Positions 1-15,916 of a stretch of DNA of 17,312 nt are shown piece by piece. This DNA comes from a virus (lineage: Duplodnaviria; Heunggongvirae; Uroviricota; Caudoviricetes), in IMG/VR virus record IMGVR_UViG_2563366888_000002, positions 1 to 17,312 of that record; one strand, given 5' to 3'. Under the pieces are notes generated by a model. It was given only the letters and a program-made list of their open reading frames with translations. It had not been told where the DNA came from and made no database searches. Each line of letters begins with the position of its first letter. Positions within the stretch are counted from its first letter, which is position 1. The translations under genes were made by a program, and so were the position numbers.

Positions 1-93
1 GCAGAAAAAGCTTATTATGCTTCCATCGGAAACGATGATCTGGCAGCCTGAGTTCACAGATAAAACACTCTCCAGGAAACCCGGGGCGGTTCA
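1..93 (+). mobile_element. IS3-family insertion sequence, right-end fragment (last 16 codons of transposase OrfB plus terminal inverted repeat); IS629/IS1203-like
   Basis: Frame 1 of 1..51 translates [16 protein letters not shown]-stop, which I recognise as an IS3-family OrfB C-terminus. Bases 37..93 are the exact reverse complement of 17254..17312. The element ends ...CCCGGGGCGGTTCA at 93 (TG...CA-type terminus). Family assignment is from memory of IS ends, not a search. Confidence 0.7.
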
Positions 94-1223
94 CACAGCC
101 GGTGTTTATGGATCTCGCCAAAAAAGGTGTGGTAGCAGATTTGATTGGCGCAGGCGCAATCATCAGAACCGCGTTCTGCGGCCCATGCTTTGGCGCAGGC
201 GCAATCATCAGAACCGCGTTCTGCGGCCCATGCTTTGGCGCGGGCGATACGCCAATCAACAACGGTTTGAGTATTCGCCACACCACGCGTAACTTCCCGA
301 ACCGCGAAGGCTCTAAGCCAGCTAATGGGCAGATGTCAGCGGTGGCGTTGATGGACGCTCGTTCTATCGCTGCGACTGCGGCAAACGGTGGCTATTTAAC
401 CTCTGCCAGCGAACTTGATTGCTGGGACAACGTGCCGGAGTACGCCTTCGATGTAACGCCGTATAAAAACCGTGTTTATCAGGGCTTTGTGAAAGGGGCA
501 ACTCAGCAACCGCTGATTTACGGGCCGAACATTAAAGACTGGCCGGAATTGGGTGCGCTGACTGACAATATCGTCCTGAAAGTGTGCTCGAAGATCCTCG
601 ACGAAGTGACCACCACCGACGAACTGATTCCTTCCGGTGAAACCTCTTCTTATCGTTCAAATCCGATTGGTCTGGCGGAGTTTACCCTGTCTCGCCGCGA
701 TCCCGGTTATGTTAGCAGAAGTAAAGCGACTGCTGAGCTGGAAAATCAGCGTCTGGCGGGGAATGTCAGCGAGCTGACAGAGGTGTTTGCGCGCATTAAG
801 CAGATTGCTGGTCAGGAGCATATTGATCCGCTGCAAACTGAAATTGGCAGCATGGTCTATGCGGTGAAACCAGGCGATGGTTCTGCGCGTGAACAGGCGG
901 CGAGCTGCCAGCGTGTGATTGGCGGTCTGGCGAATATTGCCGAGGAGTACGCGACTAAACGCTATCGTTCTAACGTCATCAACTGGGGGATGTTACCGCT
1001 GCAAATGGCGGAAGTACCAACCTTTGAAGTGGGGGATTACATTTACATCCCTGGCATTAAAGCGGCGCTGGATAATCCGGGTACGACGTTTAAAGGTTAT
1101 GTGATCCATGAAGATGCGCCGGTAACGGAAATTACGCTCTATATGGAAAGTCTGACTGCTGAAGAGCGCGAGATTATCAAGGCGGGTAGTTTGATTAACT
1201 TCAATAAAAACCGTCAGATGTAA
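94..1223 (+). pseudogene. ybhJ: ybhJ-like aconitase-family hydratase, 3' portion only (5' end removed by the IS; carries an internal 45-bp duplication)
   Basis: Open frame continuous from 94 to TAA at 1221-1223. Translation contains the aconitase-type CGPC Fe-S ligand motif and a C-terminal swivel-domain-like segment (SAREQAA...[12 protein letters not shown]). Position upstream of ybhC and attB-lambda matches the K-12 order ybhJ-ybhC-att. The frame runs into IS sequence with an in-frame stop at 36-38. Confidence 0.7.
147..236. repeat. Perfect 45-bp direct tandem duplication (2 copies) inside ybhJ
   Basis: 147..191 and 192..236 are identical (GGCGCAGGCGCAATCATCAGAACCGCGTTCTGCGGCCCATGCTTT). 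The next bases, GGCGCGGGCG, resemble the repeat start (microhomology). In frame it duplicates [15 protein letters not shown]. Confidence 0.95.
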
Positions 1224-1238
1224 AAAGCGCCATGTGAA

Positions 1239-1347
<109 letters not shown>

Positions 1348-1363
1348 AAATAGTTAATTGCTC

Positions 1364-2647
1364 TTACTTCTTCGCCTCTGCAACCACTTTACTACCCACG
1401 CCGCGGTTATTGTATTCCCACATGCGGTTGTAGTTAGTGTCATTCAGATTGCGCTGTATTTCGTCGTTATCATCTACGCTGCCGGTATTACCCGCAAACG
1501 GACGATTAGAGATCACCGCATCGGCCCACGGTTTAGCCGTGTTAAAACCTTCGTTGATGGCGCTATCACGGATCACCACCTGACCGTTGGTATTGGCATC
1601 AACATCCAGCGAGCGGCCCAGTTGCGCCACACCATCACCGAAAGCATTGAAACGGCTGTTTACGGCGAGGAAACCGTAGTAAATGTTGGACAGCGTAGCC
1701 GGTGCAAACACATACGCTTCTTGCTGAGTACGTGAGTTCACCACGCGGAATTCGGTGTTATCGAACACCACTGCGCCGCGACCAGAAACGATATCCACAT
1801 CCCCTTCAATGTAGCTGTTGGTCACCAGCGTACGCGGCTGACGATTCGTTTCCAGACGGTTCTGCACACCGCTGTTGGTGACAAAGAAGGTGTTCTGACG
1901 ACCGAGAATGTTAACGTTGTTAATCTGTACCTGGTCACCATCAGTACGCAGTGCCACCGCCGGATGGTTACCTGCATCTACGCTATCGCCCAGCGTGTTT
2001 TCGATGGTCAGATTTTGCAGTTGCAGGCCATTGTTTTGTGACCAGAAGACCGCAGAGCAGAGAACACCGATACTGTCGCTGCGTTTGCTCTGGCAGCTAT
2101 CGTACATATACCACGCTGGTTTACCTGGCATATATTTGCCGCGCGGGTTGACGTCGTGACGCCAGTCGGCAGGGCTCATGCCACCATCAAGGGAAAGCCC
2201 AATCTTCACATCAATCGGTTTTTCACCTGTACCGTACAGAGTAATTCCACCCGGAGCGGCAGGGACATATACCGTTCCCTGATACTCACCAGGCATCACG
2301 GCAATATACTGGCGCTTGTTGGTACGCTTGATAATTGCCGCATCTACCGCCGCCTGAATCGTGGTATGCGTTACACCTTGAGTGCCCGCCGGGCCGACAA
2401 CAAAGTCAGGTTGCGCAGGCAGGGTAATCGGGGAAGGATTCCACGCTGCAGCACCTGGTGTCAGGGATGCAAAATAGTGTTGAGCATCGAAATTCTGCGC
2501 TTCTTTTGCCGACAGAATCGGGCGAGAAGAGGTACCAGGCGCGGTTTGATCAGAAGGACGTTGATCGGGCGGGGTTGAGCTACAGGCGGTCAGCGTCACG
2601 CCAAAAGCCAATGCCAGCGCCAGACGGGAAACTGAAAATGTGTTCAC
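1364..2647 (-). CDS. ybhC: YbhC-like outer-membrane lipoprotein, pectinesterase family
   Basis: 427-aa ORF. N-terminal signal peptide with lipobox (LTAC). Sequence recognised as YbhC. Lies immediately beside the lambda attachment core. Confidence 0.85.
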   Translation of the reverse strand: MNTFSVSRLALALAFGVTLTACSSTPPDQRPSDQTAPGTSSRPILSAKEAQNFDAQHYFASLTPGAAAWNPSPITLPAQPDFVVGPAGTQGVTHTTIQAAVDAAIIKRTNKRQYIAVMPGEYQGTVYVPAAPGGITLYGTGEKPIDVKIGLSLDGGMSPADWRHDVNPRGKYMPGKPAWYMYDSCQSKRSDSIGVLCSAVFWSQNNGLQLQNLTIENTLGDSVDAGNHPAVALRTDGDQVQINNVNILGRQNTFFVTNSGVQNRLETNRQPRTLVTNSYIEGDVDIVSGRGAVVFDNTEFRVVNSRTQQEAYVFAPATLSNIYYGFLAVNSRFNAFGDGVAQLGRSLDVDANTNGQVVIRDSAINEGFNTAKPWADAVISNRPFAGNTGSVDDNDEIQRNLNDTNYNRMWEYNNRGVGSKVVAEAKK

Positions 2648-2693
2648 AGGTTGCTCCGGGCTATGAAATAGAAAAATGAATCCGTTGAAGCCT

Positions 2694-2785
2694 GCTTTTT
2701 TATACTAAGTTGGCATTATAAAAAAGCATTGCTTATCAATTTGTTGCAACGAACAGGTCACTATCAGTCAAAATAAAATCATTAT
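2694..2785. other. Prophage attL: lambda 15-bp core GCTTTTTTATACTAA (2694..2708) plus P' arm with arm-type Int sites
   Basis: Exact lambda core sequence. Downstream arm contains AGGTCACTAT / CAGTCAAAAT / AAATCATTAT repeats (lambda P'1-P'3 pattern). Bacterial ybhC sequence on the left, int on the right. Confidence 0.9.
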
Positions 2786-3852
2786 TTGATTTCAATTTTG
2801 TCCCACTCCCTGCCTCTGTCATCACGATACTGTGATGCCATGGTGTCCGACTTATGCCCGAGAAGATGTTGAGCAAACTTATCGCTTATCTGCTTCTCAT
2901 AGAGTCTTGCAGACAAACTGCGCAACTCGTGAAAGGTAGGCGGATCCCCTTCGAAGGAAAGACCTGATGCTTTTCGTGCGCGCATAAAATACCTTGATAC
3001 TGTGCCGGATGAAAGCGGTTCGCGACGAGTAGATGCAATTATGGTTTCTCCGCCAAGAATCTCTTTGCATTTATCAAGTGTTTCCTTCATTGATATTCCG
3101 AGAGCATCAACATGCAATGCTGTTGGGATGGCAATTTTTACGCCTGTTTTGCTTTGCTCGACATAAAGATATCCATCTACGATATCAGACCACTTCATTT
3201 CGCATAAATCACCAACTCGTTGCCCGGTAACAACAGCCAGTTCCATTGCAAGTCTGAGCCAACATGGTGATGATTCTGCTGCTTGATAAATTTTCAGGTA
3301 TTCGTCAGCCGTAAGTCTTGATCTCCTTACCTCTGATTTTGCTGCGCGAGTGGCAGCGACAGGGTTTGTTGTTATATGGCCTTCAGCTATTGCCTCTCGG
3401 AATGCATCGCTCAGTGTTGATCTGATTAACTTGGCTGACGCCGCCTTGCCCTCGTCTATGTATCCATTGAGCATTGCCGCAATTTCTTTTGTGGTGATGT
3501 CTTCAAGTGGAGCATCAGGCAGACCCCTCCTTATTGCTTTAATTTTGCTCATGTAATTTATGAGTGTCTTCTGCTTGATTCCTCTGCTGGCCAGGATTTT
3601 TTCGTAGCGATCAAGCCATGAATGTAACGTAACGGAATTATCACTGTTGATTCTCGCTGTCAGAGGCTTGTGTTTGTGTCCTGAAAATAACTCAATGTTG
3701 GCCTGTATAGCTTCAGTGATTGCGATTCGCCTGTCTCGGCCTAATCCAAACTCTTTACCCGTCCTTGGGTCCCTGTAGCAGTAATATCCATTGTTTCTTA
3801 TATAAAGGTTAGGGGGTAAATCCCGGCGCTCATGACTTCGCCTTCTTCCCAT
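2782..3852 (-). CDS. int: Lambda-type integrase (tyrosine recombinase)
   Basis: 356-aa ORF. Translation recognised as lambda Int essentially end to end (MGRRRSHERRDLPPNLYIRNNGYY...HLLGHKSDTMASQYRDDRGREWDKIEIK). Confidence 0.95.
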   Translation of the reverse strand: MGRRRSHERRDLPPNLYIRNNGYYCYRDPRTGKEFGLGRDRRIAITEAIQANIELFSGHKHKPLTARINSDNSVTLHSWLDRYEKILASRGIKQKTLINYMSKIKAIRRGLPDAPLEDITTKEIAAMLNGYIDEGKAASAKLIRSTLSDAFREAIAEGHITTNPVAATRAAKSEVRRSRLTADEYLKIYQAAESSPCWLRLAMELAVVTGQRVGDLCEMKWSDIVDGYLYVEQSKTGVKIAIPTALHVDALGISMKETLDKCKEILGGETIIASTRREPLSSGTVSRYFMRARKASGLSFEGDPPTFHELRSLSARLYEKQISDKFAQHLLGHKSDTMASQYRDDRGREWDKIEIK

Positions 3853-4048
3853 TTCTGATCCTCTTCAAAAGGCTACCTGTTACTGGTCGATTTAAGTCAA
3901 CCTTTACCGCTGATTCGTGGAACAGATATTCTCTTCCATCCTTAACCGGAGGAGGGAATATCCTGCATTCGCGCACCCATCGACGAATTGTTTCAAGGCT
4001 TCTTGGGCGTCGCTGGCGAGCGTTCCACTCCTGAAGTGTCAAGTACAT
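3830..4048 (-). CDS. xis: Excisionase Xis
   Basis: 72-aa ORF (MYLTLQEWNARQRRPRSLETIRRWVRE...) recognised as lambda Xis. Overlaps the int start as in lambda. GGAG 8 nt upstream of ATG. Confidence 0.95.
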   Translation of the reverse strand: MYLTLQEWNARQRRPRSLETIRRWVRECRIFPPPVKDGREYLFHESAVKVDLNRPVTGSLLKRIRNGKKAKS

Positions 4049-4071
4049 CGCAAAGTCTCCGCAATTACACG

Positions 4072-4096
4072 CAAGAAAAAACCGCCATCAGGCGGC
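4072..4096 (-). terminator. Putative intrinsic terminator-like hairpin (CCGCC-ATCA-GGCGG followed by a U7 tract on the minus-strand RNA)
   Basis: GC stem at 4082-4086/4091-4095 with A-run 4075-4081 on the plus strand (U-run on the leftward transcript). Located about 25 nt upstream of the xis start; function unverified. Confidence 0.35.
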
Positions 4097-4292
4097 TTGG
4101 TGTTCTTTCAGTTCTTCAATTCGAATATTGGTTACGTCTGCATGTGCTATCTGCGCCCACAGCATCCAGTGGTTATAGCAGTCGCTGATGTTCTCGGCTT
4201 CGATAACTCTGTTGAATGGTTCTCCATTCCATTCACCTGTAACTCGGAAGTGCATTTATCATCGCCATAAAACAAAACTCGCCGTAGCGAGT

Positions 4293-4324
4293 TCAGATAA
4301 AAGAAAACCCGCACTCGGCGGGTT
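4293..4324 (-). terminator. Putative intrinsic terminator on the leftward transcript
   Basis: 7-bp stem AACCCGC/GCGGGTT (4306-4312/4318-4324) with 5-nt loop, followed on the minus strand by UUCUUUUAU. Sits where I judge the sequence to diverge from lambda. Confidence 0.4.
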
Positions 4325-4603
4325 CGCATTCGTTCAAATTGCGTTTACTTCTTGGCGTTCTGTTCATCCATATCGATATACCATGGGTTGCTTCCCTTGG
4401 GCATGTTTAACGACTGCTCGCGATAGTATCTGATGCGCTCCATGAAATACTCGCGTGAGTGCTCAGGTTGCTCTCATGATACCTGCTCAGTGATAACAGG
4501 TATGTTAAGGCGCTCTCTGTACTCCATGCCTGATGCTGCAAGGTCAACGTTTACCTTGTTCTGTTTTTCTTTCGATTTCTCGGCGATGTTATGCCTGACA
4601 TTG

Positions 4604-4888
4604 TCAACCCGCCTCCTTCTGAACATAACGGTTATAAATCAGTCCCTGAGGGCCATAAGGAAGCGGGATGTGCAACTCCTCTGGTTCAGAAACTATCCAT
4701 TCCCCGGCCATCTCCGCTGGAGAGGTAATGATAAGTTGTTTGCTAATAAAAGGACCACTCCTCTCAACAACAAGCTTACCATCTTCATTAATAAAAGCTT
4801 GGATGTCAGGTGTGCTTCCACACTTGGTGATGCAGCGTTTGAACATTTTGTGTCCCCCCATTTTATGGACGGGGTAATTATAACACAT
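4604..4888 (-). CDS. Hypothetical protein (94 aa; possibly about 80 aa from an internal ATG preceded by a G-rich SD-like run)
   Basis: ORF from track; occupies the ea8.5 position but is not recognisably Ea8.5. No SD before the first ATG; GGGGGG 7 nt before the third Met codon. The antisense plus-strand ORF 4433..4891 looks low-complexity. Confidence 0.45.
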   Translation of the reverse strand: MCYNYPVHKMGGHKMFKRCITKCGSTPDIQAFINEDGKLVVERSGPFISKQLIITSPAEMAGEWIVSEPEELHIPLPYGPQGLIYNRYVQKEAG

Positions 4889-4972
4889 TGAAATATAGTA
4901 ATATTTGACGTAGATTTCTTTTGATCTATAAGCGATTTTTTAATGCTTTTAAGTTATAAATACTTGTTTTCA

Positions 4973-5548
4973 TCACCCATCTTGCTGCGGTGCTACTATT
5001 GAAAAGTACTCACACCCTTTAGCCCAAATAGTTTTGATAGTTGTCCAACTGACTGGAACCTTGATTTCGATTCTTCCGCTGCCGTCACAAGTTTCGCAAT
5101 CATCATCACCAAAGCATTCCGGGCAGCTTATAAACGTAGTTTCTGAAAATTCACCGGATAGCACACCCTTAGCGCCGTTCTCAGCGGTTAGTTTCTTCGG
5201 CACTATAACCCAACCATCCGGAGTTACCGGAGAATTGCCATTTATATCGAAGTTTGGCTCTGCGTCCTGAACCAGGAGGATGTAACCATTCTTGGCAGTA
5301 TCAAGTTCTAACGCCTCGGTGACGGTACCGAAATAGCGATTACCTAAATCCGCATCACAAGTGCTTACATCAATGGAAACCTCCATGCCTTCGATTAATT
5401 CTGGCAAGTTGTAAGTTTGGCTTACAGGTTCTGCTCCCAGTGATGCCAGTGCAATTCGTGCCAGTTCCATTTGTTCGCCACGAGTAAGCCCGTTTTCAAG
5501 CGGATTTTTAATGAACAATTCAATACGTTCTTTGGTAATAGTGGTCAT
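4973..5548 (-). CDS. Hypothetical protein with C-terminal zinc-ribbon (CPEC...CETCDGSG, DnaJ-like CxxCxGxG motif)
   Basis: 191-aa ORF. AAGGA 7 nt upstream of ATG. Only 10 nt downstream of the preceding gene's stop (operon-like packing). Cys-pair motifs read directly from the translation. Confidence 0.6.
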   Translation of the reverse strand: MTTITKERIELFIKNPLENGLTRGEQMELARIALASLGAEPVSQTYNLPELIEGMEVSIDVSTCDADLGNRYFGTVTEALELDTAKNGYILLVQDAEPNFDINGNSPVTPDGWVIVPKKLTAENGAKGVLSGEFSETTFISCPECFGDDDCETCDGSGRIEIKVPVSWTTIKTIWAKGCEYFSIVAPQQDG

Positions 5549-5558
5549 TTGTTAGTCC

Positions 5559-6314
5559 TTAAACTGCTAGTTGCAATTGCATTTCAAAGCGGTCGCGTTG
5601 TTCACAATACGCAAGAGAACCAGGGCTATTGTGTGCCTCAATCCGTTCTACCATTAATGCTGCGCGTGTCTCTTTACTTGCAGGTGCATAAGCCCCAGAC
5701 CAGGCTTTATCAATACCGATGTTTCGAGCGACGTTCGTACTATCTGCGCTGGCTAAGGGTAATTTTGTGAATATCAGCGGATTTAACATGCGCAATCCAT
5801 GTAGTTTCGTAACCAGCTGACCATGCCCATCAACAATGTGACGAATCAGGTCTTTCATTCTGGCTACCGCAAGAGTTGGGCGCTTTACGTCATAGTCGCC
5901 ACAACTACCGATAGCCACTCGCGGAAACTCATTGCACAAATGAATAAATCGCTCGTCACTTTCATTCATGTGCCACACTGGAACGCCAGCTAGTTTTCCG
6001 TGAGGCCACTCATTCAGAAGCGCATCATTTTCCTCCTCTCCGCCATCAATAACATCCGGGATAATGGCAAAATCGAATCTTGGGTGATTCTTCCAGCGAG
6101 CAACAAACTCGTAGTAATCGCTCCAGTCGATTTTGTTTTTGCCAGCTGCTTTCCAGGCGGTGAATGCACCGTTGTCCAGCGCGAACGACTGACAGTATTC
6201 AGCCGCGAGATTGATCTGGCCTGAATGCGCAAAACTGATAAACGCATGTCGCCCTTTCCATGCTCTCATTGCGCACGTATCAGGAGTAATAGGCCCACCG
6301 TGGTAGTGAATCAT
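5559..6314 (-). CDS. TGT-fold protein; candidate DpdA-like 7-deazaguanine DNA transglycosylase (251 aa from the SD-supported ATG)
   Basis: Start chosen at 6314: AAGGAG 6 nt upstream, and ATG overlaps the Ea22-like stop (TGAGATG). The track ORF extends to 6356 but overlaps the upstream gene. Motifs align to tRNA-guanine transglycosylase by eye: FALDNGAF ~ TDSGGFQ, IIPDVID ~ MIFDEC, ASADSTNVARNIG ~ FDCVMPTRNARNG. No C-terminal zinc-binding CxCxxC...H subdomain. Confidence 0.55.
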   Translation of the reverse strand: MIHYHGGPITPDTCAMRAWKGRHAFISFAHSGQINLAAEYCQSFALDNGAFTAWKAAGKNKIDWSDYYEFVARWKNHPRFDFAIIPDVIDGGEEENDALLNEWPHGKLAGVPVWHMNESDERFIHLCNEFPRVAIGSCGDYDVKRPTLAVARMKDLIRHIVDGHGQLVTKLHGLRMLNPLIFTKLPLASADSTNVARNIGIDKAWSGAYAPASKETRAALMVERIEAHNSPGSLAYCEQRDRFEMQLQLAV

Positions 6315-6315
6315 C

Positions 6316-6723
6316 TCACTCTCCTTTGATGCGAATGCCAGTAGCGCGGATTGCATCGATGACTTCAGAAACTTTGTATGCCATTACCGTTTGGTAATCA
6401 TCGTGAAAATCTGTTCGATGAAGCATGCTGCTACGTTCCGGGAGCAGTATTTCCCGCGCTTCCAGTTCTGCAATGCGCTTTTTTGCTGCTTCCAGTTCAT
6501 CCAGTAATTCCAGCACGGTAGCCGGATTAGCCTTGGCAACAAAATCCCGGACTGGCTTACAATCAATCTCCGCAATGGGTTGATACGATGTGTAGCCATG
6601 CTGTCTTGTATAACTACCGTGACGAATAACGAAAAAATCACCATTTATTTTTTTAGCCTGCCACTTATCTTCACCGGCTTTCTCTGCCGCTTCACGCAGT
6701 GCCTGAGAGTTAATTTCGCTCAC
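6316..6723 (-). CDS. Ea22/Ead-family protein (chimeric: lambda-like N-terminus and last residues, divergent middle)
   Basis: 135-aa ORF. N-terminus MSEINSQALREAAEKA... and C-terminal ...GIRIKGE are characteristic of the Ea22 family. Shorter than lambda Ea22 (about 182 aa). Confidence 0.7.
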   Translation of the reverse strand: MSEINSQALREAAEKAGEDKWQAKKINGDFFVIRHGSYTRQHGYTSYQPIAEIDCKPVRDFVAKANPATVLELLDELEAAKKRIAELEAREILLPERSSMLHRTDFHDDYQTVMAYKVSEVIDAIRATGIRIKGE

Positions 6724-6941
6724 GTCGAACCTCTCTGTTTACTGATAAGCTCCAGATCTTGCTGGCAACTGGCACAAGTCCGACAACCCTGAACGGCCAG
6801 TCGTCTTCGTTCATCTATCGGATCGCCACACTCACAACAATGAGTGGCAGATATAGCCTGGTGGTTCAGGCGGCGCATTTTTATTGCTGTGTTGCGCTGT
6901 AATTCTTCAATTTCTGATGCTGAATCAATTATGTCTGCCAT
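6720..6941 (-). CDS. TraR/DksA-family C4 zinc-finger protein (lambda orf73-like)
   Basis: 73-aa ORF with CCECGDPIDERRR...CRTCASC (two Cys pairs, DksA/TraR pattern). Overlaps the Ea22-like start by 4 nt. Confidence 0.8.
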   Translation of the reverse strand: MADIIDSASEIEELQRNTAIKMRRLNHQAISATHCCECGDPIDERRRLAVQGCRTCASCQQDLELISKQRGST

Positions 6942-7039
6942 CTTTCATTAATCCCTGAATTGTTGGTTAATACGCTTGAGGGTGAATGCGAATAATAAAA
7001 AAGGAGCCTGTAGCTCCCTGATGATTTTGCTTTTCATGT

Positions 7040-7321
7040 TCACCGTTCCTTAAAGACGCCGTTCAACATGCCGATCGCCAGGCTTAAATGAGTCGGTGTG
7101 AATCCCATCAGCGTTACCGTTTCGCGGTGCTTCTTTAGTACGCTACGGCAAATGTCATCGACGTTTTTATCCGGAAACTGCTGTCTGGCTTTTTTGATTT
7201 CAGAATTAGCCTGACGGGCAATGCTGCGAAGGGCGTTTTCTTGCTGAGGTGTCATTGAACAAGCCCCATGTCGGCAAGCATAAGCACACAGAATATGAAG
7301 CCCGCTGCCAGAAAAATGCAT
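7040..7321 (-). CDS. Small early-left hypothetical protein (likely translated from the internal ATG at 7255, giving 71 aa)
   Basis: ORF from track. The internal ATG at 7255 overlaps (ATGA) the stop of an upstream 27-codon hydrophobic mini-ORF (7252..7335), suggesting translational coupling. Lambda-like by memory. Confidence 0.5.
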   Translation of the reverse strand: MHFSGSGLHILCAYACRHGACSMTPQQENALRSIARQANSEIKKARQQFPDKNVDDICRSVLKKHRETVTLMGFTPTHLSLAIGMLNGVFKER

Positions 7322-7331
7322 TCAGTGGTTG

Positions 7332-7523
7332 TCATACCTGGTCTCTCTCATCTGCTTCTGCTTTCGCCACCATCATTTCCAGCTTTTGTGAAAGGGATGC
7401 GGCTAACGTATGAAATTCTTCGTCTGTTTCTACTGATATTGGCACAAACCTGACTCCAATTTGAGCGAGGCTATGTGCCATCTCGATACTCGTTCTTAAC
7501 TCAACGGGAGATGCTTTGTGCAT
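7332..7523 (-). CDS. Lambda orf63-like small protein
   Basis: 63-aa ORF. Overlaps the next upstream ORF by 28 nt, exactly as the lambda orf63/orf60a pair does. Confidence 0.55.
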   Translation of the reverse strand: MHKASPVELRTSIEMAHSLAQIGVRFVPISVETDEEFHTLAASLSQKLEMMVAKAEADERDQV

Positions 7524-7678
7524 ACAGCTCCCCGTTTATTATTTATCTCCTCAGCCAGCCGCTGTGCTTTCAGGGGATTTCTGATAACAGAAAGGCCGGG
7601 AAATACCCAGCCTCGCTTTGTAATGGAGTAGACGAAAGTGATCGCGCCCACCCGGATATTATCGTGAGGATGCGTCAT
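7496..7678 (-). CDS. Lambda orf60a-like small protein (60 aa from the ATG that overlaps the exo stop)
   Basis: Track ORF 7496..7684. The start at 7678 gives 60 aa and a 4-nt ATGA overlap with the exo stop, matching lambda organisation. Confidence 0.5.
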
Positions 7679-8355
7679 CGCCATTGCTCCCCAAATACAA
7701 AACCAATTTCAGCCAGTGCCTCGTCCATTTTTTCGATGAACTCCGGCACCATCTCGTCAAAACTCGCCATGTACTTTTCATCCCGCTCAACCACGACATA
7801 ATGCAGGCCTTCACGCTTCATACGCGGGTCATAGTTGGCAAAGTACCAGGCATCTTTTCGCGTCACCCACATGCTGTACTGCACCTGGGCCATGTAAGCC
7901 GACTTTATGGCCTCGAAACCACCGAGCCGGAACTTCATGAAATCCCGGGAGGTAAACGGGCATTTCAGCTCAAGGCCATTGCCGTCACTGCATAAACCAT
8001 CGGGAGAGCAGGCGGTACGCATACTTTCGTCGCGATAGATGATCGGGGATTCAGTAACATTCACGCCGGAAGTGAATTCAAACAGAGTTCTGGCGTCGTT
8101 CTCGTACTGTTTTCCCCATGCCAGCGCCTTAGCATTAACTTCCGGAGCCACACCGGTGCAAACCTCAGCCAGCAGGGTGTGGAAGTAGGACATTTTCATG
8201 TCAGGCCACTTTTTTCCGGAGCGGGGTTTTGCTATCACATTGTGAACTTCTGAAGCGGTGATGACGCCGAGCCGTAATTTGTGCCACGCATCATCCCCCT
8301 GTTCGACAGCTCTCACGTCGATTCCGGTACGCTGCAGGATAATGTCCGGTGTCAT
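7675..8355 (-). CDS. exo: Exonuclease (Red-alpha)
   Basis: 226-aa ORF recognised as lambda Exo ([54 protein letters not shown]...). Confidence 0.95.
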
Positions 8356-9137
8356 GCAGCCACCTTCTGCTCAGTGGCTTTCTGTTTCAGGAATCCAAGA
8401 GCTTTCACTGCTTCGGCCTGTGTCAGTTCTGACGATGCGCGAATGTCGCGGCGAAATATCTGGGAACAGAGCGGCAATAAGTCGTCATCCCATGTTTTAT
8501 CCAGGGCAATCAGCAGAGTGTTAATCTCCTGCATGGTTTCATCGTTAACCGGAGTGATGTCGCGTTCCGGCTGACGTTCTGCAGTGTATGCGGTATTTTC
8601 GACAATGCGCTCGGCTTCATCCTTGTCATAGATACCCGCAAATCCGAAGGCCAGACGGGCACACTGAATCATGGCTTTATGCCGTAACATCCGTTTGGGA
8701 TGCGACTGCCACGGCCCCGTAATTTCTCTGCCTTCGCGGGTTTTGAATGGTTCGCGGCGGCATTCATCCATCCACTCGGTAACGCAGATCGGATGATTAC
8801 GGTCCTTGCGGTAAATCCGGCATGTACAGGATTCATTGTCCTGCTCAAAGTCCATGCCATCAAACTGCTGGTTTTCATTGATGATGCGGGACCAGCCATC
8901 AACGCCCACCACCGGAACGATGCCATTCTGCTTATCAGGAAAGGTGTAAATTTCTTTCGTCCACGGATTAAGGCCGTACTGGTTGGCAACGATCAGTAAT
9001 GCGATGAACTGCGCATCGCTGGCATCACCTTTAAATGCCGTCTGGCGAAGAGTGGTGATCAGTTCCTGTGGGTCGACAGAATCCATGCCGACACGTTCAG
9101 CCAGCTTCCCAGCCAGCGTTGCGAGTGCTGTACTCAT
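8352..9137 (-). CDS. bet: Recombination protein Bet (Red-beta single-strand annealing protein)
   Basis: 261-aa ORF recognised as lambda Bet ([59 protein letters not shown]...). Confidence 0.95.
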
Positions 9138-9142
9138 CCGTT

Positions 9143-9439
9143 TTATACCTCTGAATCAATATCAACCTGGTGGTGAGCAATGGTTTCAACCATGTACCGG
9201 ATGTGTTCTGCCATGCGCTCCTGAAACTCAACATCGTCATCAAACGCACGGGTAATGGCTTTTTTGCTGGCCCCGTGGCGTTGCAAATGATCGATGCATA
9301 GCGATTCAAACAGGTGCTGGGGCAGGCCTTTTTCCATGTCGTCTGCCAGTTCTGCCTCTTTCTCTTCACGGGCGATCTGCTGGTAGTGACGCGCCCAGCT
9401 CTGAGCCTCAAGACGATCCTGAATGTAATAAGCGTTCAT
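9143..9439 (-). CDS. gam: Gam, RecBCD inhibitor (98-aa short form; the longer N-terminal extension is not in frame here)
   Basis: Translation [21 protein letters not shown]...[10 protein letters not shown] recognised as lambda GamS. In-frame stop at 9494-9496 upstream; the lambda-like extension peptide [15 protein letters not shown] is encoded in the +1 frame. Confidence 0.9.
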
Positions 9440-9514
9440 GGCTGAACTCCTGAAAATGGCTGTGAAAATATCGCCCGCGAAATGCCAGGCTGATTAGGAA
9501 AACAGGAAAGGGGA

Positions 9515-9721
9515 TTAGCGATTCAGGCCGTTACCGCGTCCGTCGAGAAAAACTTCCACGAGCAAATCACGGGTATAAGTGCGCTCGATGCCGCGATGCA
9601 GATAAAGCCGTCCGCGTAAATTAGCTGATGCAGTCCAGGTACCATCTTTGTGTTTGACCAGCATTCCTGGCATGACCGCACCTCGATTAACGGTCTGCGT
9701 TCCGTAATGTTGATGAACCAT
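9515..9721 (-). CDS. Small hypothetical protein in the kil position (68 aa from the SD-supported ATG); frame stays open upstream to a TTG at 9925
   Basis: AGGAG 5 nt before the ATG at 9721. The 136-codon track ORF starts on TTG with no SD. Non-lambda sequence. Confidence 0.45.
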
Positions 9722-9943
9722 AAAAACTCCTGCCCGTAAGCTGGGCTGCTGAACATATAGAGACTTCTGCGCGTATTCAGGCGGTGGATGGCCGCCGGTT
9801 GTCATAACTAAGTCGCCTCGTTGAAGCGACTGAGGTATGAAGTGTTGAGTTGATTTCAGCTGGTCACACCGACGTTCACGCGTCCGCTTCACCCCTCGCA
9901 CTCCCCGAAGCCTGCTGAAATTCAAACTGCGGATCTAAGCGGT

Positions 9944-10072
9944 CATCGCAACGGTGAAACAGGTGGTTACCGTATCGTTGTGTCGTTGCGATGAATTTAT
10001 TTAAAACTATAGTTGTTTTATCGTCAACAACAAAAGTTGTTTTGTCGGTTGTTTTAAATATAACTGGTTGTA
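9944..10072 (-). promoter_or_regulatory. Candidate OL/pL region and early leftward leader: 10-bp inverted repeat with 30-bp spacer plus GTTGTT/AACAAC operator-like half-sites
   Basis: CATCGCAACG (9944-9953) pairs with CGTTGCGATG (9984-9993). Half-sites AGTTGTTTT (10011-10019), CAACAAC (10025-10031), AGTTGTTTT (10035-10043), GGTTGTTTT (10048-10056), CTGGTTGTA (10064-10072). The same half-site recurs in the cI-cro intergenic region. No promoter hexamers confidently placed. Confidence 0.4.
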
Positions 10073-10161
10073 TTTAGGATGGATTTATTTTGTGACTTGC
10101 ATCGCATAGCGATAACTGAAGTGAGGTGTGGTGGTTTTTTGGACGGTATGAGTTATGAGGG

Positions 10162-10193
10162 GGAGGAAAAGAAAACCCGGCGCGGTTGCCGGG
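10162..10193 (-). terminator. Intrinsic terminator downstream of the lipoprotein gene (end of the cI-side operon)
   Basis: Stem CCCGGC/GCCGGG (10176-10181/10188-10193) with 6-nt loop, followed on the minus-strand RNA by UUUUCUUUUCC. 9 nt after the lipoprotein stop. Confidence 0.6.
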
Positions 10194-10201
10194 TATGATT
10201 A

Positions 10202-10582
10202 TCAGTCAGCCCAACCTGATTTCGAGTTTATTTGGGTTTCTGACATTGTGTATTTCTTAATCGTGTCATCGTTAAAAAGAATAGTAAGTTCTTTTTTCGT
10301 ACCGTTCGTTCCATTATGGAATAATCCATAGAATGGAATAAAAGTGGTGCCATTAACTTTTACTTTTGCAAAGGCGTACTTCCAGATCTCGTTTCCACTG
10401 TCAGTATATGAAACAGCATCAGGAGAACCAAAGTAAGATTTAACCTCATTCTTGGTTGTTTTACCTTCCTGAAGTTTAGACTGGACACTAATTTCAGTTT
10501 CATTTTTGAGTTGCTGGTTGCCTGAAGAAGCACACCCAGCCAATACAGATGCCATCATGGCAGCGATTAGGATTTTTCTCAT
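10202..10582 (-). CDS. BamE/SmpA-OmlA-like small lipoprotein; moron in the rex position downstream of cI
   Basis: 126-aa ORF. Signal peptide with lipobox LAGC. The EGKTTKNEVKSYFGSPD...WKY pattern resembles the BamE fold motif. Same strand as cI and followed by a terminator. Confidence 0.7.
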   Translation of the reverse strand: MRKILIAAMMASVLAGCASSGNQQLKNETEISVQSKLQEGKTTKNEVKSYFGSPDAVSYTDSGNEIWKYAFAKVKVNGTTFIPFYGLFHNGTNGTKKELTILFNDDTIKKYTMSETQINSKSGWAD

Positions 10583-10811
10583 TTTATGTTTCCATTCATT
10601 ATAATCAGAAACATCTTAACATAATGATTCGAAATAAAAACCGCTACGAGATAGGGGGACATTTTGCTGACAGTAGCAACAAATCTCAGCTAACAACGAG
10701 AATATTTACTGAAATATGCAAACAGATTTGGCGTTCTTATAGAGAATTTAGTGCAATATCTAATCCGAGTGGTATAAACCTTAACCTTCGCTCCCTTAAG
10801 TCGTAGATAAA

Positions 10812-11501
10812 TTAACCATGCTTCCTGTACGTCTGCGGCATGCTTCCAATGACCTTACCGAATATGAACACCCGGTTCATCTCGTCTTTCTCGATCGGGT
10901 CCCACGGCGAGTAGCTCTTGTTATCAGAGATAACCAGCAGCTTATCCTTCATCATTTGAAGACGTTTTACATGGGCAGTGTCGTCGTACAGAAACGCATA
11001 GATGCCATCACCGTCGAAAGATTTAACAGTGATATCAACGAACAGCAGGTCACCTGGTTCGATCGTCCCTGACATGCTGTCACCTCGCACGTTAATGATG
11101 CGGATATTTTCCGCCTTCCTGCCATCGAACATGTGACGAGCATCGTCAAACGAGTACTCAACCGAGCGTAGAACTTCTACAAACTCACGGTTGATTACAC
11201 CTGGCCCGGCACTGACTTCTATATCAAGAACGTCAATTTTGAAGTATTTGGAATGGCTGACAGTTGATTGTATTGGTTGCACTGTACTGTCTGACATATT
11301 TCCAACGCCAGAAGATAACCATTCTGCGCGCACACCCAAAGCGTTCGCGATCTCCACGATTTTAGTTGTTTGGTTAGCTTTCCCTGTTTCGATTTTCTGA
11401 ATAGCAGCCTGGCTAACCCCGACCAAATCCCCAAGCGCCTTTTGTGTAAGGCCTCGCGCTAATCTGGCTTCTTTAAGTCTTTCTGAGAGTGTTGTTTTCA
11501 T
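10812..11501 (-). CDS. cI: CI-type prophage repressor (N-terminal HTH_XRE, C-terminal S24 LexA-like peptidase domain)
   Basis: 229-aa ORF. HTH segment LTQKALGDLVGVSQAAIQKIETGK. Candidate Ala-Gly autocleavage site (VSAGPG). Ser/Lys dyad motifs GDSM and HVKRL. No SD before the ATG, consistent with a leaderless pRM-type transcript. Not lambda immunity. Confidence 0.85.
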   Translation of the reverse strand: MKTTLSERLKEARLARGLTQKALGDLVGVSQAAIQKIETGKANQTTKIVEIANALGVRAEWLSSGVGNMSDSTVQPIQSTVSHSKYFKIDVLDIEVSAGPGVINREFVEVLRSVEYSFDDARHMFDGRKAENIRIINVRGDSMSGTIEPGDLLFVDITVKSFDGDGIYAFLYDDTAHVKRLQMMKDKLLVISDNKSYSPWDPIEKDEMNRVFIFGKVIGSMPQTYRKHG

Positions 11502-11605
11502 AGATCAAATGTACAACCAAGGTTTTATTTCATCAAACGAAAATGGTTGTTGACTAAAAACAACCATAGTTTTAATCTTGATTCGGATTAACCACGGAGG
11601 TTGTT
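11502..11605. promoter_or_regulatory. Divergent promoter/operator region (OR; pR-like promoter for cro, leaderless pRM-like start for cI)
   Basis: Rightward TTGACT (11550-11555), 17-bp spacer, TAATCT (11573-11578), then GGAGG before the cro ATG. Inverted repeat ATGGTTGTT (11542-11550) / AACAACCAT (11559-11567) overlaps the -35. Confidence 0.6.
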
Positions 11606-11836
11606 ATGAACCCAGCAATCAAAACAGCGATCAATATCGTTGGTTCACAAAAGAAACTAGGCGATGCCTGCGAAGTTTCACAGCAGGCCGTCTATAAGTG
11701 GCTTCACAACAAAGCAAAGGTATCCCCTGAACATGTCGGCAGCATTGTTACGGCTACTGGTGGAGTTGTGAAGGCATACCAGATTCGCCCGGATCTTCCG
11801 AAGTTGTTTCCACACACCGAAAAGAACGCAGCTTAA
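11606..11836 (+). CDS. Cro-like HTH regulator (YdaS-like)
   Basis: 76-aa ORF divergent from cI with a strong SD. HTH-like segment KKLGDACEVSQQAVYKWLHN. Family call from memory. Confidence 0.7.
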   Translation: MNPAIKTAINIVGSQKKLGDACEVSQQAVYKWLHNKAKVSPEHVGSIVTATGGVVKAYQIRPDLPKLFPHTEKNAA

Positions 11837-11905
11837 ATTTCCATTTCACGCTCTTTAACAATAAGCAATCAACTTAACAGTCAATTCAAACTAAAGGAGT
11901 CAATT

Positions 11906-12445
11906 ATGCAACCACTTACATACCAACAGACTAGCGGATTTATTCCGACTGCGGTGATAAATCGTTCTCAAACAAAACAAGCTCCAGGCCACGAAAAAAT
12001 CCGTGATGCCGTCCGCGCCTGGTCGGCTGTAGATAATCAGGATGTCGTTGCCGCACTCATTGTGAATGAGTATCGGGAGCAGGGCGACGGCACCATCGAT
12101 TTCCCTGATGATGTCAGCCGTGCACGCCAGAAGCTGTTCCGCTTCCTCGATAACAAATTCGATTCTGAAAAATACCGAAATAACGTGCGTGAACTGACCC
12201 CGGCAATTCTGGCGGTACTACCGCTGGAATATCGCGGTTACCTGGTTGAGCAGGATAGCTTCATGACTCGGTTGGCTGAAATGGAAAAGGAACTCAGTGA
12301 GGCAAAACAGGCTGTCATTCTCAACGCACCACGCCACCAGAAACTGAAGGAAATGAGTGAAGGTATTGTGTCGATGTTTCGTGTGGACCCGGATCTGGCT
12401 GGTCCATTAATGGCGATGGTGACCACCATGCTGGGGGCAATATGA
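11906..12445 (+). CDS. CII-position regulatory protein (YdaT/CII-like), 179 aa
   Basis: AAGGAG SD. Located between cro-like and O with an ATGA overlap at the 3' end. Assignment is by position, not recognised sequence. Confidence 0.45.
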   Translation: MQPLTYQQTSGFIPTAVINRSQTKQAPGHEKIRDAVRAWSAVDNQDVVAALIVNEYREQGDGTIDFPDDVSRARQKLFRFLDNKFDSEKYRNNVRELTPAILAVLPLEYRGYLVEQDSFMTRLAEMEKELSEAKQAVILNAPRHQKLKEMSEGIVSMFRVDPDLAGPLMAMVTTMLGAI

Positions 12446-12531
12446 CAGGTTCAGAAATGGCGAAAGTCGGTCTGCGGGAACAGAACCGACTTTCAGGTGC
12501 AAATCGTAACACACTCATTGCGGGAGGAATT

Positions 12532-13461
12532 ATGGCAAACACTGCTGAGATATTCAATTTTCCAGTGCCGGATGCGGCACAAAAGGAGCCGCGCGTGGCA
12601 GATCTCGATGATGGTTATACGCGCATTGCAAATGAGTTGCTGGAAGCTGTGATGCTGGCCGGATTAACACAGCACCAGCTTCTGGTCTTCCTGGCTGTCA
12701 TGCGCAAAACATATGGCTTTAATAAAAAACTGGATTGGGTGAGCAACGAGCAACTTTCCGAGTTGACCGGGATATTGCCGCACAAGTGTTCTGCTGCAAA
12801 AAGCGTTCTGGTAAAGCGTGGGATTCTTATTCAGAGCGGGCGGAATATCGGCATTAATAATGTGGTCAGTGAATGGTCAACATTACCCGAATCAGGTAAG
12901 AAAAATAAAGTTTACCTGAAAGAGGTAAATTTACCTGAATCAGGTAAGAAAAGTTTACCCAAATCAGGTAAAGGCGTTTACCCGAATCAGGTAAACACAA
13001 AAGACAAACTAACAAAAGACAATATAAAACCTTTTTCGTCCGAGAATTCTGGCGAATCCTCTGACCAACCAGAAAACGATCTTCCTGTGGAGAAACCAGA
13101 TGCTGCAATTCAGAGCGGCAGCAGGTGGGGGACAGCAGAAGACCTGACCGCCGCAGAGTGGATGTTTGACATGGTGAAGACCATCGCGCCATCAGCCAGA
13201 AAACCGAATTTTGCAGGGTGGGCTAACGATATCCGCCTGATGCGTGAACGTGACGGACGTAACCACCGCGACATGTGCGTGCTGTTCCGCTGGGCATGCC
13301 AGGACAACTTCTGGTCCGGTAACGTGCTAAGTCCGGCCAAACTCCGCGACAAGTGGACCCAACTCGAAATCAACCGTAACAAGCAACAGGCTGGCGTGAC
13401 AGCCGGAAAATCAAAACTCGACCTGACAAACACTGACTGGATTTATGGGGTGGATTTATGA
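12532..13461 (+). CDS. O: Replication initiator O (non-lambda N-terminal iteron-binding domain, lambda-like C-terminal P-interaction domain)
   Basis: Conserved O motif ADLDDGY...LLEA...RKTYGFNK...SNEQLSELTG and lambda-like C-terminus (...WIYGVDL). Start set at 12532 (GGGAGG 5 nt upstream; aligns with the lambda O N-terminus). The track ORF begins at 12442. Confidence 0.85.
   Translation: MANTAEIFNFPVPDAAQKEPRVADLDDGYTRIANELLEAVMLAGLTQHQLLVFLAVMRKTYGFNKKLDWVSNEQLSELTGILPHKCSAAKSVLVKRGILIQSGRNIGINNVVSEWSTLPESGKKNKVYLKEVNLPESGKKSLPKSGKGVYPNQVNTKDKLTKDNIKPFSSENSGESSDQPENDLPVEKPDAAIQSGSRWGTAEDLTAAEWMFDMVKTIAPSARKPNFAGWANDIRLMRERDGRNHRDMCVLFRWACQDNFWSGNVLSPAKLRDKWTQLEINRNKQQAGVTAGKSKLDLTNTDWIYGVDL
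12883..12995. repeat. Replication origin iterons inside O (five about 18-bp direct repeats), followed by an A/T-rich segment to about 13040
   Basis: TTACCCGAATCAGGTAAG (12883), TTTACCTGAAAGAGGTAAA (12911), TTACCTGAATCAGGTAAG (12931), TTACCCAAATCAGGTAAA (12954), TTACCCGAATCAGGTAAA (12978), then ACAAAAGACAAACTAACAAAAGACAATATAAAA. Classic lambdoid ori architecture. Confidence 0.8.
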
Positions 13462-14159
13462 AAAACATCGCCGCACAGATGGTTAACTTTGACCGTGAGC
13501 AGATGCGCCGGATCGCCAACAACATGCCGGAACAGTACGACGAAAAGCCGCAGGTACAGCAGGTAGCGCGGATCATCAACGGTGTGTTCAGCCAGTTACT
13601 GGCAACTTTCCCGGCGAGCCTGGCTAACCGGGACCAGAACGAACTGAACGAAATCCGCCGCCAGTGGGTTCTGGCTTTCCGGGAAAACGGGATCACCACA
13701 ATGGAACAGGTTAACGCAGGAATGCGCGTAGCCCGTCGGCAGAATCGACCATTCCTGCCATCACCCGGGCAGTTTGTCGCCTGGTGCCGGGAAGAAGCAT
13801 CCGTTACCGCCGGACTGCCAAACGCCAGCGAGCTGGTTGATATGGTTTACGAGTATTGCCGGAAGCGTGGCCTGTATCCGGACGCAGAGTCTTATCCATG
13901 GAAATCAAACGCGCACTACTGGTTGGTTACCAACCTGTACCAGAACATGCGGGCCAATGCGCTGACTGACGCGGAATTACGGCGTAAAGCTGCCGATGAG
14001 CTGACCTGTATGACCGCGCGAATTAACCGTGGTGAGGCGATACCTGAACCAGTAAAACAACTTCCTGTCATGGGCGGTAGGCCTCTAAATCGTGCACAGG
14101 CTCTGGCGAAGATCGCAGAAATCAAAGCGAAGTTCGGACTGAAAGGAGCAACTGTATGA
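13458..14159 (+). CDS. P: Replication protein P (DnaB helicase loader)
   Basis: 233-aa ORF recognised as lambda P almost residue for residue (MKNIAAQMVNFDREQMRRIANNMPEQYDEKPQVQQVA...). Confidence 0.95.
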   Translation: MKNIAAQMVNFDREQMRRIANNMPEQYDEKPQVQQVARIINGVFSQLLATFPASLANRDQNELNEIRRQWVLAFRENGITTMEQVNAGMRVARRQNRPFLPSPGQFVAWCREEASVTAGLPNASELVDMVYEYCRKRGLYPDAESYPWKSNAHYWLVTNLYQNMRANALTDAELRRKAADELTCMTARINRGEAIPEPVKQLPVMGGRPLNRAQALAKIAEIKAKFGLKGATV

Positions 14160-14329
14160 CGGGCAAAGAGGCAATTATTCATTATCTGGAGACGCACAAG
14201 AGCTTCTGTGCGCCGGACGTTGCTGCGACAACAGGTGTGACATTAACCAGCATAAATCAGGCTGCGGCAAAAATGGCGCGGGCAGGAATCCTGGTCATTG
14301 ATGGTAAGGTCTGGCGAACGTTTGTTTAA
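14156..14329 (+). pseudogene. ren: ren N-terminal fragment (57 codons; lambda-like for about 50 residues, then divergent and terminated)
   Basis: ATG overlaps the P stop. Translation MTGKEAIIHYLETHKSFCAPDVAATTGVTLTSINQAAAKMARAGILVIDGKVWRTFV-stop matches lambda Ren (96 aa) only in its N-terminal part. Not in the ORF track because under 60 aa. Confidence 0.6.
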
Positions 14330-14475
14330 CGGTTAGCTACTCAGGATGATAGGGCGGGGCAAGTGAGTATGAAGCGGATTTTCAGGAATGCCATCAGAGT
14401 TTGGAAATAAAGTGGGTTTTCTAGTGGCAAGAGACTTGATAATATTTAGTTCTTTAAATCCAAGGAGATAGGGTT

Positions 14476-14970
14476 ATGAGAAAATTTATTATAGCCTTTG
14501 TCATAAGTGCCTCGTTTACTGCAAATGCTGGTGTAGAGAAGTTAGGGTCGTGGATAACAAAGTCTGAGATAAATAAAATGACTGACCAGACTGACTTTGT
14601 GGCTCTTAATTTATCACCAGATTCATATAACAAAGCAGGTACTGATCGTGCAACTTCACTGGTGTTGCGTTGTAGTGATAACAAAACAGATGCCTATTTA
14701 TCATTCAATGATTATATGGGTTCGGACAACCCAAGAATTACAGTGCGGTTAGATGGCGGAAAGCCGGTCAAGAGTGCTTGGGGAGGTGGGGAAGGCGGTG
14801 ATTCTGCATTTGCTCCACAACCAATACAATTTATAAAGACCTTGGCTAAGCATAAAAAAGCTATTTTTGGGTTTGAACCTTATGGATCAACTATGCAAGT
14901 AGTTGAGTTTGACTTGTCTGAGATTGATAAGGTTGTGGAAAAAATTTCACAGTCTTGCAATTGGAAATGA
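14476..14970 (+). CDS. Secreted hypothetical protein (signal peptide, two Cys), low-GC moron
   Basis: 164-aa ORF. N-terminal MRKFIIAFVISASFTANA signal-peptide pattern. GGAG-type SD. Visibly AT-rich relative to neighbours. Followed by a terminator. Confidence 0.65.
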   Translation: MRKFIIAFVISASFTANAGVEKLGSWITKSEINKMTDQTDFVALNLSPDSYNKAGTDRATSLVLRCSDNKTDAYLSFNDYMGSDNPRITVRLDGGKPVKSAWGGGEGGDSAFAPQPIQFIKTLAKHKKAIFGFEPYGSTMQVVEFDLSEIDKVVEKISQSCNWK

Positions 14971-14987
14971 CAAAAAAATTTCATATG

Positions 14988-15012
14988 AACCCAGTTGGCG
15001 CTGGGTTTTTTA
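14988..15012 (+). terminator. Intrinsic terminator after the secreted-protein gene
   Basis: Stem AACCCAG/CTGGGTT (14988-14994/15001-15007) with loop TTGGCG, followed by TTTTTAT. Confidence 0.65.
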
Positions 15013-15607
15013 TTTCAGTAGCCAATAATGCATTCAAAATCTCTTACTTGAGAAACGGCCTATTTGAGATTTCAGTCGTGGCAGGATGATCAGTTGATTC
15101 GAGTATTGACGCATTTGCGTTCGGAGCGATTACAGTAGATTGTAAATAATAATGAGAAACACATAGCCACATAGCCACCCCGTGGTATTGAAACCATATA
15201 ATGTTGGATTTGAAAACAGATCTTTTCCCATGTATTAATAACTACATCCCCGCGAGTGATTCAAAAAGGAGGGCCCAATTTTGTCCGAGTTTTTGTATTC
15301 CCCCGCATGCCGCTGCGGAGCACTACATCTGAGTGTCTGACTAGGGGATAAAATTAGACTGGATAGTGAGAAGAAAGTGGCGCGCTAGGCTGTGCCGAGT
15401 GCTACCAGTACACCTTGGGGGTGTGCAGCTTTCGCCGAGACTGTAGTGGGTATCGGTTAATGCACGAAAAACCGAGAGGTCAGACAACCAATTTGCCGTA
15501 GGATTGTTTCCGGTGCGATACCGGTCTACTAACTGAAAGCAATGCGAAAAAGCATAAACTCGGTCCTTCAGTCGCCCTACACACTATTTACTAAGAAGGG
15601 CTGAAGC

Positions 15608-15808
15608 ATGGATACAATTATTACATGGATGGGAGATCGTCTGTTGGGGGGGACACAAAAATCCGATCTGCAGCAGATGGCGATCACTGGATTAACTTCC
15701 GCGATTTGTTCAACAATTTTGTACACTGAAAAATTAAAACATGGTGAGCCTATTAACCCAAACGAAGAAGAAAAACTTTATAGGCTTTGGTATGAAGGAA
15801 ACGCTTGA
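15608..15808 (+). CDS. Hypothetical small protein (66 aa)
   Basis: ORF from track. AAGGG 9 nt upstream of ATG. No recognisable motif. Confidence 0.4.
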   Translation: MDTIITWMGDRLLGGTQKSDLQQMAITGLTSAICSTILYTEKLKHGEPINPNEEEKLYRLWYEGNA

Positions 15809-15916
15809 AAGAATAAAGCACAATTAAAACCTTTGATTTGCGATAATCAACTTGCCATAATTAAGTAATCGGAGCCTGAACAACTCCGGTGACTTCTGCG
15901 CTAAACGGGGACGTTT

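Follow-up and report, generated by a model that had tools for sequence, protein, structure and literature searches.

DpdA1 proteins of the phages CAjan, 9g and Iggy are validated 7-cyano-7-deazaguanine (preQ0)-DNA transglycosylases. Their genes adjoin folE, queD, queE and queC, and 16-32% of guanines (G) are modified. Deletion of DpdA in CAjan abolishes 2'-deoxy-7-cyano-7-deazaguanosine (dPreQ0), and phage 9g DpdA alone in E. coli draws on host preQ0 to generate dPreQ0, which reaches 0.03-0.3% of G (both PMC6884629). Singleton DpdA genes have been listed for HK106, SfI, BTP1, SPN3UB, SEN1, 7-11, PEAT2 and Vibrio phage Athena1 (Hutinet 2019, Supplementary Data 1, PMC6884629). Here, we analyzed a 17,312-nucleotide (nt) stretch of DNA assigned to Caudoviricetes (IMG/VR record IMGVR_UViG_2563366888_000002, positions 1 to 17,312; hereafter the window), which carries a gene for a singleton DpdA-like protein of 251 amino acids (aa) at 5559-6314 on the minus strand, a homologue of DNA guanine transglycosylases of the tRNA-guanine transglycosylase (TGT) superfamily. 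From sequence comparisons and a predicted structure we conclude that its product is a DpdA-family protein whose active site is intact. The element adds to an already published gene class a new example carried on a near-lambda backbone.

The 251-aa protein matched phrog_887 ('queuine tRNA-ribosyltransferase') at 6.7e-104, and the TGT fold proposed for it in the first-pass annotation, which had been made from the sequence alone, proved correct, the protein being a DpdA homologue with a TGT-type fold. A family profile built from 55 sequences aligned with CAjan DpdA in hhalign at 98.9% probability (E 1.6e-17, 174 columns). Pairwise BLASTP gave E 1e-42 and 38% identity against gp38 of phage MED16, and 3e-13 against the DpdA of Pseudomonas phage Iggy, for which tblastn gave approximately 26% identity. 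Among phage genomes searched by tblastn, BTP1 and SPN3UB showed 92% identity, SfI 68%, and SEN1, HK106, 7-11 and MED16 36-38% (36% for 7-11 DpdA); protein P0087 of Vibrio phage Athena1 is 68% identical. When 8000 candidates were scored, more than 7800 clusters (90% identity) fell into the DpdA-like family at E<=1e-3, corresponding to 793 representatives at 50% identity, and nearly all of them are named 'hypothetical'. Sequence searches of the PDB with either the single protein or the 55-sequence profile gave no meaningful match at the hidden Markov model level to any chain, and an hhalign comparison with E. coli Tgt, for which the template was one sequence only, returned nothing. Neither the protein nor any of the 55 homologues matched Pfam TGT (PF01702) at E<=1. 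The validated CAjan and Iggy DpdAs were likewise unmatched in this control, in which E. coli Tgt scored 2.8e-168.

AlphaFold2, supplied with the 55-sequence alignment, predicted an eight-fold beta/alpha barrel with a predicted local distance difference test score (pLDDT) of 92, and the predicted structure has the TGT-type (beta/alpha)8 barrel that characterizes DpdA members. Its best structural neighbour is Cap10. Five residues (D47, H172, S189, D191 and S192) do not vary across 55 diverse homologues, and two others (D87 and H115) hardly do. D47 (in LDNGAF) and D191 (in ADST) align with the aspartates of the LDSGAFS and CDSS motifs of CAjan and Iggy DpdA, and the conserved residues lie at the C-terminal ends of strands 3, 4, 5, 7 and 8 of the predicted model. 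In S. Montevideo DpdA, Asp95 serves as acid/base, Asp130 and His181 in base recognition, and Asp256 as nucleophile (PMC10164549). The order of D47, D87, H115 and D191 in the model matches that of these four residues, a correspondence drawn by strand position and not by residue-level superposition. As modelled, the protein appears to be a minimal TGT-type barrel that keeps the acid/base and nucleophile aspartates as well as the base-recognition Asp/His. It has no TGT-type Zn2+ site: beyond residue 191 there is a single Cys, and a CxCxxC motif is absent. Since the aligned phage DpdA1 sequences likewise have no Cys cluster, a Zn2+ site marks TGTs and bacterial DpdA, not phage DpdA.

Compared with described systems, the 251-aa protein has the barrel core and the LD(N/S)GAFS and (A/C)DS(T/S) motifs in common with the validated DpdA1 enzymes, which differ from it by their low identity (22-26%), an N-terminal extension of about 30 residues and a longer C-terminus. 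Bacterial DpdA (PDB 7UI4) and tRNA-guanine transglycosylases show 8-14% identity and possess a large zinc-binding Ins8 subdomain that is absent from the 251-aa protein. The singletons of gamma-proteobacterial temperate phages (group 3 of Hutinet 2019, with BTP1, SPN3UB, SfI, HK106, SEN1 and Vibrio phage Athena1) are like the 251-aa gene in being without preQ0 genes and in lying in the early ea/recombination region, and in BTP1 the DpdA gene directly follows an Ea22-like gene, as it does in the window. The window phage differs from these singletons in its 97-98% lambda backbone, its lambda attachment site and its downstream partner. The gp38 protein of Pantoea phage MED16 and the DpdA of Salmonella phage 7-11 are of similar size (approximately 250-260 aa), and neither phage has que genes; unlike the window prophage, both are virulent siphoviruses, and no candidate for an enzyme converting preQ0 to the ADG base is evident in the window.

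The genes annotated in the identical prophage stretch include no que or other preQ0 synthesis gene, which makes the 251-aa protein one of the singletons. The host would therefore have to supply any 7-deazaguanine substrate, and the earlier suggestion that host queuosine precursors are used is a reasonable one, in which host preQ0 would be drawn upon. The host preQ0 pathway consists of FolE, QueD, QueE and QueC, and the tgt/queA locus is present in the E. coli K-12 host. The 251-aa gene, apparently situated in the pL operon between exo/bet and xis/int and translationally coupled to ea22, would by analogy with lambda be switched on in the delayed-early phase that follows infection or induction. 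Its product would exchange a few guanines in replicating phage DNA for host-made preQ0, and this exchange would leave sparse marks of dPreQ0 or dADG (2'-deoxy-7-amido-7-deazaguanosine). Carriers of the singleton clade of about 250 aa comprise lambdoid, P22-like, P2-like and P1-like elements together with Vibrio phages, and in the first four the DpdA-like genes occupy early or DNA-metabolism regions. In the P2-like Salmonella phage SEN1, the gene (2980-3810) is directly upstream of the replication nickase gene; P2/186-like relatives often hold an orphan Dam methyltransferase in this slot, which would fit a DNA-marking role. In our judgement, an orphan DpdA within a patchwork of exchanged genes, sparsely inserting host preQ0 into phage DNA, is the best explanation of the locus, and we hold it with moderate confidence. 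An anti-restriction benefit would be an unproven extrapolation from high-level modifiers, and data on relatives argue against bulk protection.

Several points weigh against sparse preQ0 insertion by this protein. The gamma-proteobacterial singletons form their own cluster, marked by rapid divergence and possibly diverged in function (Hutinet 2019, PMC6884629). In phage 7-11 DNA, dADG reaches the very low level of approximately 0.02% of G, and DNA of the singleton-encoding mycobacteriophage Orion has no modification (both PMC6884629). MED16 DNA, with dADG at approximately 0.13% of G, was still cut in vitro by the G-containing restriction enzymes tried (PMC8306585). Bacterial DpdA requires the DpdB ATPase (PMC10164549), and no such partner is evident here. 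A literature search on deazaguanine in lambdoid phages found no functional study of a lambdoid singleton DpdA. Foldseek with the model of the 251-aa protein returned generic triosephosphate isomerase (TIM) barrels only, which were also the only matches of an earlier AlphaFold2 model from a shallow alignment (pLDDT 69). Library scans of Pfam, NCBIfam and PADLOC gave no match for the 251-aa protein; the profile searches proposed in the first-pass annotation for it and two neighbouring proteins of 94 and 191 aa placed it in the DpdA family, but these three libraries yielded nothing for any of the three. The same rapid divergence (Hutinet 2019, PMC6884629) favours the idea that the singleton clade has taken up another role, such as guanine exchange in tRNA, Cap10-like attachment of deazaguanine to protein, or counter-defence against Dpd restriction-modification or the type IV cyclic-oligonucleotide-based antiphage signalling system (CBASS). 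The very low modification of 7-11 and MED16 DNA is hard to square with bulk protection, and bacterial dpd clusters are present in some E. coli strains. However, the 251-aa protein is clearly most similar to phage DpdAs that act on DNA, keeps the guanine-pocket Asp/His and matches no PADLOC defence-system model, and dADG is present in the DNA of two singleton-encoding phages, so that we regard such a change of role as unlikely. A related and similarly doubtful proposal is that the clade is no bulk anti-restriction device and represents an orphan 'self-marking' enzyme, using host preQ0 to place a few site-specific dPreQ0 or dADG marks that mimic or evade 7-deazaguanine-dependent immunity (e.g. 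Dpd restriction-modification), or has been repurposed, Cap10-like, for a non-DNA substrate. Hosts also encode glycosylases that attack 7-deazaguanine-modified phage DNA (bioRxiv 10.1101/2025.10.29.685425), and 7-deazaguanine marks can therefore be costly.

The first-pass annotation had further proposed that the genes for the 94-aa protein, the 191-aa zinc-ribbon protein and the 251-aa TGT-fold protein form one co-functional 7-deazaguanine anti-restriction module. They are adjacent and close on the same strand (10 nt between the 251-aa and 191-aa genes), and a DpdA-like protein without the TGT zinc subdomain has a neighbour with a zinc ribbon; yet the validated DpdA1 enzymes are also without a Cys cluster in the alignment, and the three genes assort independently. 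Among 5426 complete E. coli genomes (at least 80% query coverage), the DpdA gene (5559-6314) was present in 201, a block made up of the small ORF (open reading frame) and the 191-aa gene's C-terminal half (4604-5200) was present in 87, and the whole stretch (4300-6400) in only 30, all of them 99.7-99.9% identical; no record in the phage collection contained the whole stretch. Elsewhere, the neighbours of the DpdA gene differ. It is followed in an O121:H19 prophage by a 40-codon fragment, a dATP/dGTP pyrophosphohydrolase-domain gene and an ea8.5-like gene, in IAI39 by a DUF551 gene and NinX, and on a P1-like plasmid by DUF551 remnants; in BTP1, it stands after the Ea22-like gene and before eaA/DUF550, and in SfI it has a DUF1317 gene on one side and small ORFs on the other. 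Conversely, P22-like prophages without DpdA contain a theta pseudogene, the 80-aa form of the small ORF and the zinc-ribbon module as a group, with the last of these joined to DUF550 or DUF551 heads. The small-ORF family comprises 9 clusters as against more than 7800 for the DpdA-like family, and even the 191-aa ORF is a composite whose parts meet at a shared head. Co-inheritance was thus not observed, and the idea of a single module is largely refuted and very unlikely to be right. We consider it still less probable that the insert is inert, decaying cargo without current function. The theta gene has a nonsense codon, sister prophages have an IS66-family element (ISCro1) or IS2 in or beside the insert segment (NZ_CP051001.1, 3287-5902; H44, NZ_CP120568.1), and the NZ_CP051001.1 prophage is heavily deleted, with bet fused to ninG. 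Against this, the 251-aa ORF is full length with every invariant family residue kept, the gene is at least 99% identical in 188 genomes, and it keeps its Shine-Dalgarno sequence and its apparent translational coupling to ea22.

With respect to the surrounding DNA, window positions 1-2693 are E. coli chromosome (ybhJ and ybhC), and a lambda-like prophage begins at the attP core at 2694; the prophage occupies the lambda attachment site beside ybhC. Comparison of the window with the lambda reference (NC_001416) by blastn revealed four matching blocks. The first, containing int, xis and orf55, spans window 2694-4310 (lambda 27724-29340, 98.5% identity). The second is a 29-nt island at window 6313-6341 (lambda 29844-29872) with the same sequence as the lambda ea22 3' end. 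The third runs from the ea22 N-terminus through exo, bet and gam (window 6682-9521, lambda 30354-33193, 97.6% identity), and the fourth covers window 12995-14400 (lambda 39119-40525, 92% identity). According to blastn and the lambda annotation, a non-lambda substitution of 2371 base pairs (4311-6681) takes the place of lambda 29341-30353, that is, of ea8.5 and all of ea22 except approximately 14 N-terminal codons. The lambda-like flanks, with junctions near 4300 and at the Ea22 N-terminus, had been recognized from the sequence alone; the lambda alignment that had been called for shows DNA 97-98% identical to lambda on either side and sets the edges at 4310/4311 and 6681/6682. The earlier view of a horizontally exchanged accessory region in the early-left operon is supported. 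Rather than one cassette, the insert at 4311-6681 is a patchwork of recombined pieces in the early-left (pL) operon.

The right-hand part of this patchwork is formed by a chimeric Ead/Ea22-like gene of 135 aa (6316-6723, minus strand; Pfam PF13935 at 2.6e-17), which matches lambda only in its first ~14 and last ~8 codons and has a foreign middle, in agreement with its initial description as chimeric. The three leftward ORFs of 94, 191 and 251 aa were also found as described, at 4604-4888, 4973-5548 and 5559-6314. The maximal ORF of the 251-aa gene would extend to 6356 and encode 265 aa, yet all homologues begin with MIHYHGGP. An overlap of this gene with the Ea22 stop had been suggested, but its start is 1 nt past the stop (TGA-G-ATG). 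Its Shine-Dalgarno sequence, AAAGGAG, is 7 nt before the ATG and sits inside the 29-nt lambda ea22 island at 6313-6341, which looks like a conserved boundary sequence for module exchange. Of the strong Shine-Dalgarno sequences reported earlier, this one and the AAGGA before the 191-aa ATG were confirmed, but the ATG at 4888 of the 94-aa ORF has none. Similarly, the reported spacing of 10 nt and 4 nt was correct for the interval between the 251-aa and 191-aa genes, but there is no 4-nt gap in the trio, the distance from the 191-aa stop being 84 nt to the 94-aa ATG and 126 nt to an ATG at 4846.

The 191-aa ORF (4973-5548, minus strand) encodes a mosaic EaA/Ea22-type protein matching phrog_60 and, partially, several other PHROGs. 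It is a chimera of a head of about 40 residues, MTTITKERIELFIKNPLENGLTRGEQMELARIALASL, an SPVTPDGW linker and a swappable C-terminal zinc-ribbon module, and its homologues consist of the same pieces joined to Ea22, DUF550 or DUF551 modules. The conserved head, encoded by the first ~40 codons (5429-5548, minus strand), constitutes the left edge of the DpdA module: it is the shared start of whichever gene comes after DpdA in the O121, P1-like and BTP1 contexts, and DNA similarity to the DpdA module in other phages stops at window 5428-5434, inside this head. The zinc ribbon noted at the outset was confirmed by the presence of CPECFGDDDCETCDGSGR, a CxxCxGxxxCxxCxGxG motif. The idea that this ribbon acts in trans in place of the absent TGT zinc subdomain was considered and rejected on the co-occurrence evidence. 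For identical DNA, the NCBI Prokaryotic Genome Annotation Pipeline (PGAP) annotated, in one genome, a 'molecular chaperone DnaJ' of 137 aa alongside a fragment of 46 codons and, in another, the fragment alone. We rejected the DnaJ identity: the 191-aa protein had no Pfam DnaJ or DnaJ_CXXCXGXG match at E<=0.1, its comparison with the DnaJ Cys-rich domain 1exk was insignificant (E 7.3), and it has a single pair of CxxCxG motifs versus four CxxCxGxG repeats. The 'DnaJ' name is an artefact that arises from the CxxCxGxxxCxxCxGxG motif.

The small ORF (4604-4888, minus strand) has a maximal length of 94 aa, and its likely product is an 80-aa protein from the ATG at 4846, which is preceded by a GGGGGGA Shine-Dalgarno sequence and is the start favoured by PGAP and PHROG. 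The 80-aa product is covered by a match to phrog_9613 (function unknown) at 3e-51; no Pfam, NCBIfam, PADLOC or PDB match was found for it, and its 9 family clusters come from a collection of 5.8 billion proteins. A fourth gene of the insert, absent from the first-pass annotation, is a DNA polymerase III theta (HolE/P1 Hot-like) pseudogene at 4345-4626 on the minus strand, with an in-frame TGA at codon 51 and a translation reading ...PVITEQVS*EQPEH... PGAP describes it as 'DNA polymerase III subunit theta, internal stop' in the identical prophages, and the internal-stop flag was present in all four other prophage contexts inspected, among them P22-like prophages at other integration sites. This lineage-conserved nonsense codon could be an old shared lesion, could leave a functional N-terminal fragment, or could be read through. 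We view the theta pseudogene, together with the 80-aa ORF and the 191-aa zinc-ribbon protein, as unrelated cargo of the mosaic. At the left end, two tandem terminator-like hairpins were found on the minus strand at 4325-4305 and 4294-4275, with the lambda junction at 4310/4311 in the T-tail of the first. The two hairpins are similar; the first is part of the foreign insert, the second part of the lambda-homologous DNA.

Outside the insert, the immunity and replication region is non-lambda at window 9521-12995 and 14400-17312. It includes a BamE-like lipoprotein ORF (10202-10582), an S24 repressor and a YdaT-domain protein, together with a frameshifted ren pseudogene and a TagO-like ORF (14476-14970), and the nin region encodes the DNA base-flipping protein YbcN. 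Beyond E. coli prophages, a metagenomic phage-like contig (416-1993 and 7222-8445) carries a DpdA-like gene (47% identical) located three genes downstream of a radical SAM protein (525 aa) and near a fusion of uracil-DNA glycosylase with a PolA exonuclease, which may represent a different 7-deazaguanine or DNA-modification context. Contigs with distant metagenomic DpdA homologues were too short for genomic context.

Taken as a whole, the initial observation was largely confirmed with corrections and its DpdA/TGT assignment was right, but the three-gene cassette was unsupported. Because both the gene family and its occurrence in lambdoid phages have already been published and the module was not upheld, the finding itself is modest. 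It nevertheless exposes an annotation gap: PGAP names the 251-aa protein 'hypothetical' in approximately 200 complete E. coli genomes, despite a family thousands strong. What role a stand-alone DpdA plays in temperate phages dependent on preQ0 from the host has been a question since 2019, for which a lambda-like E. coli prophage would be the most tractable system.

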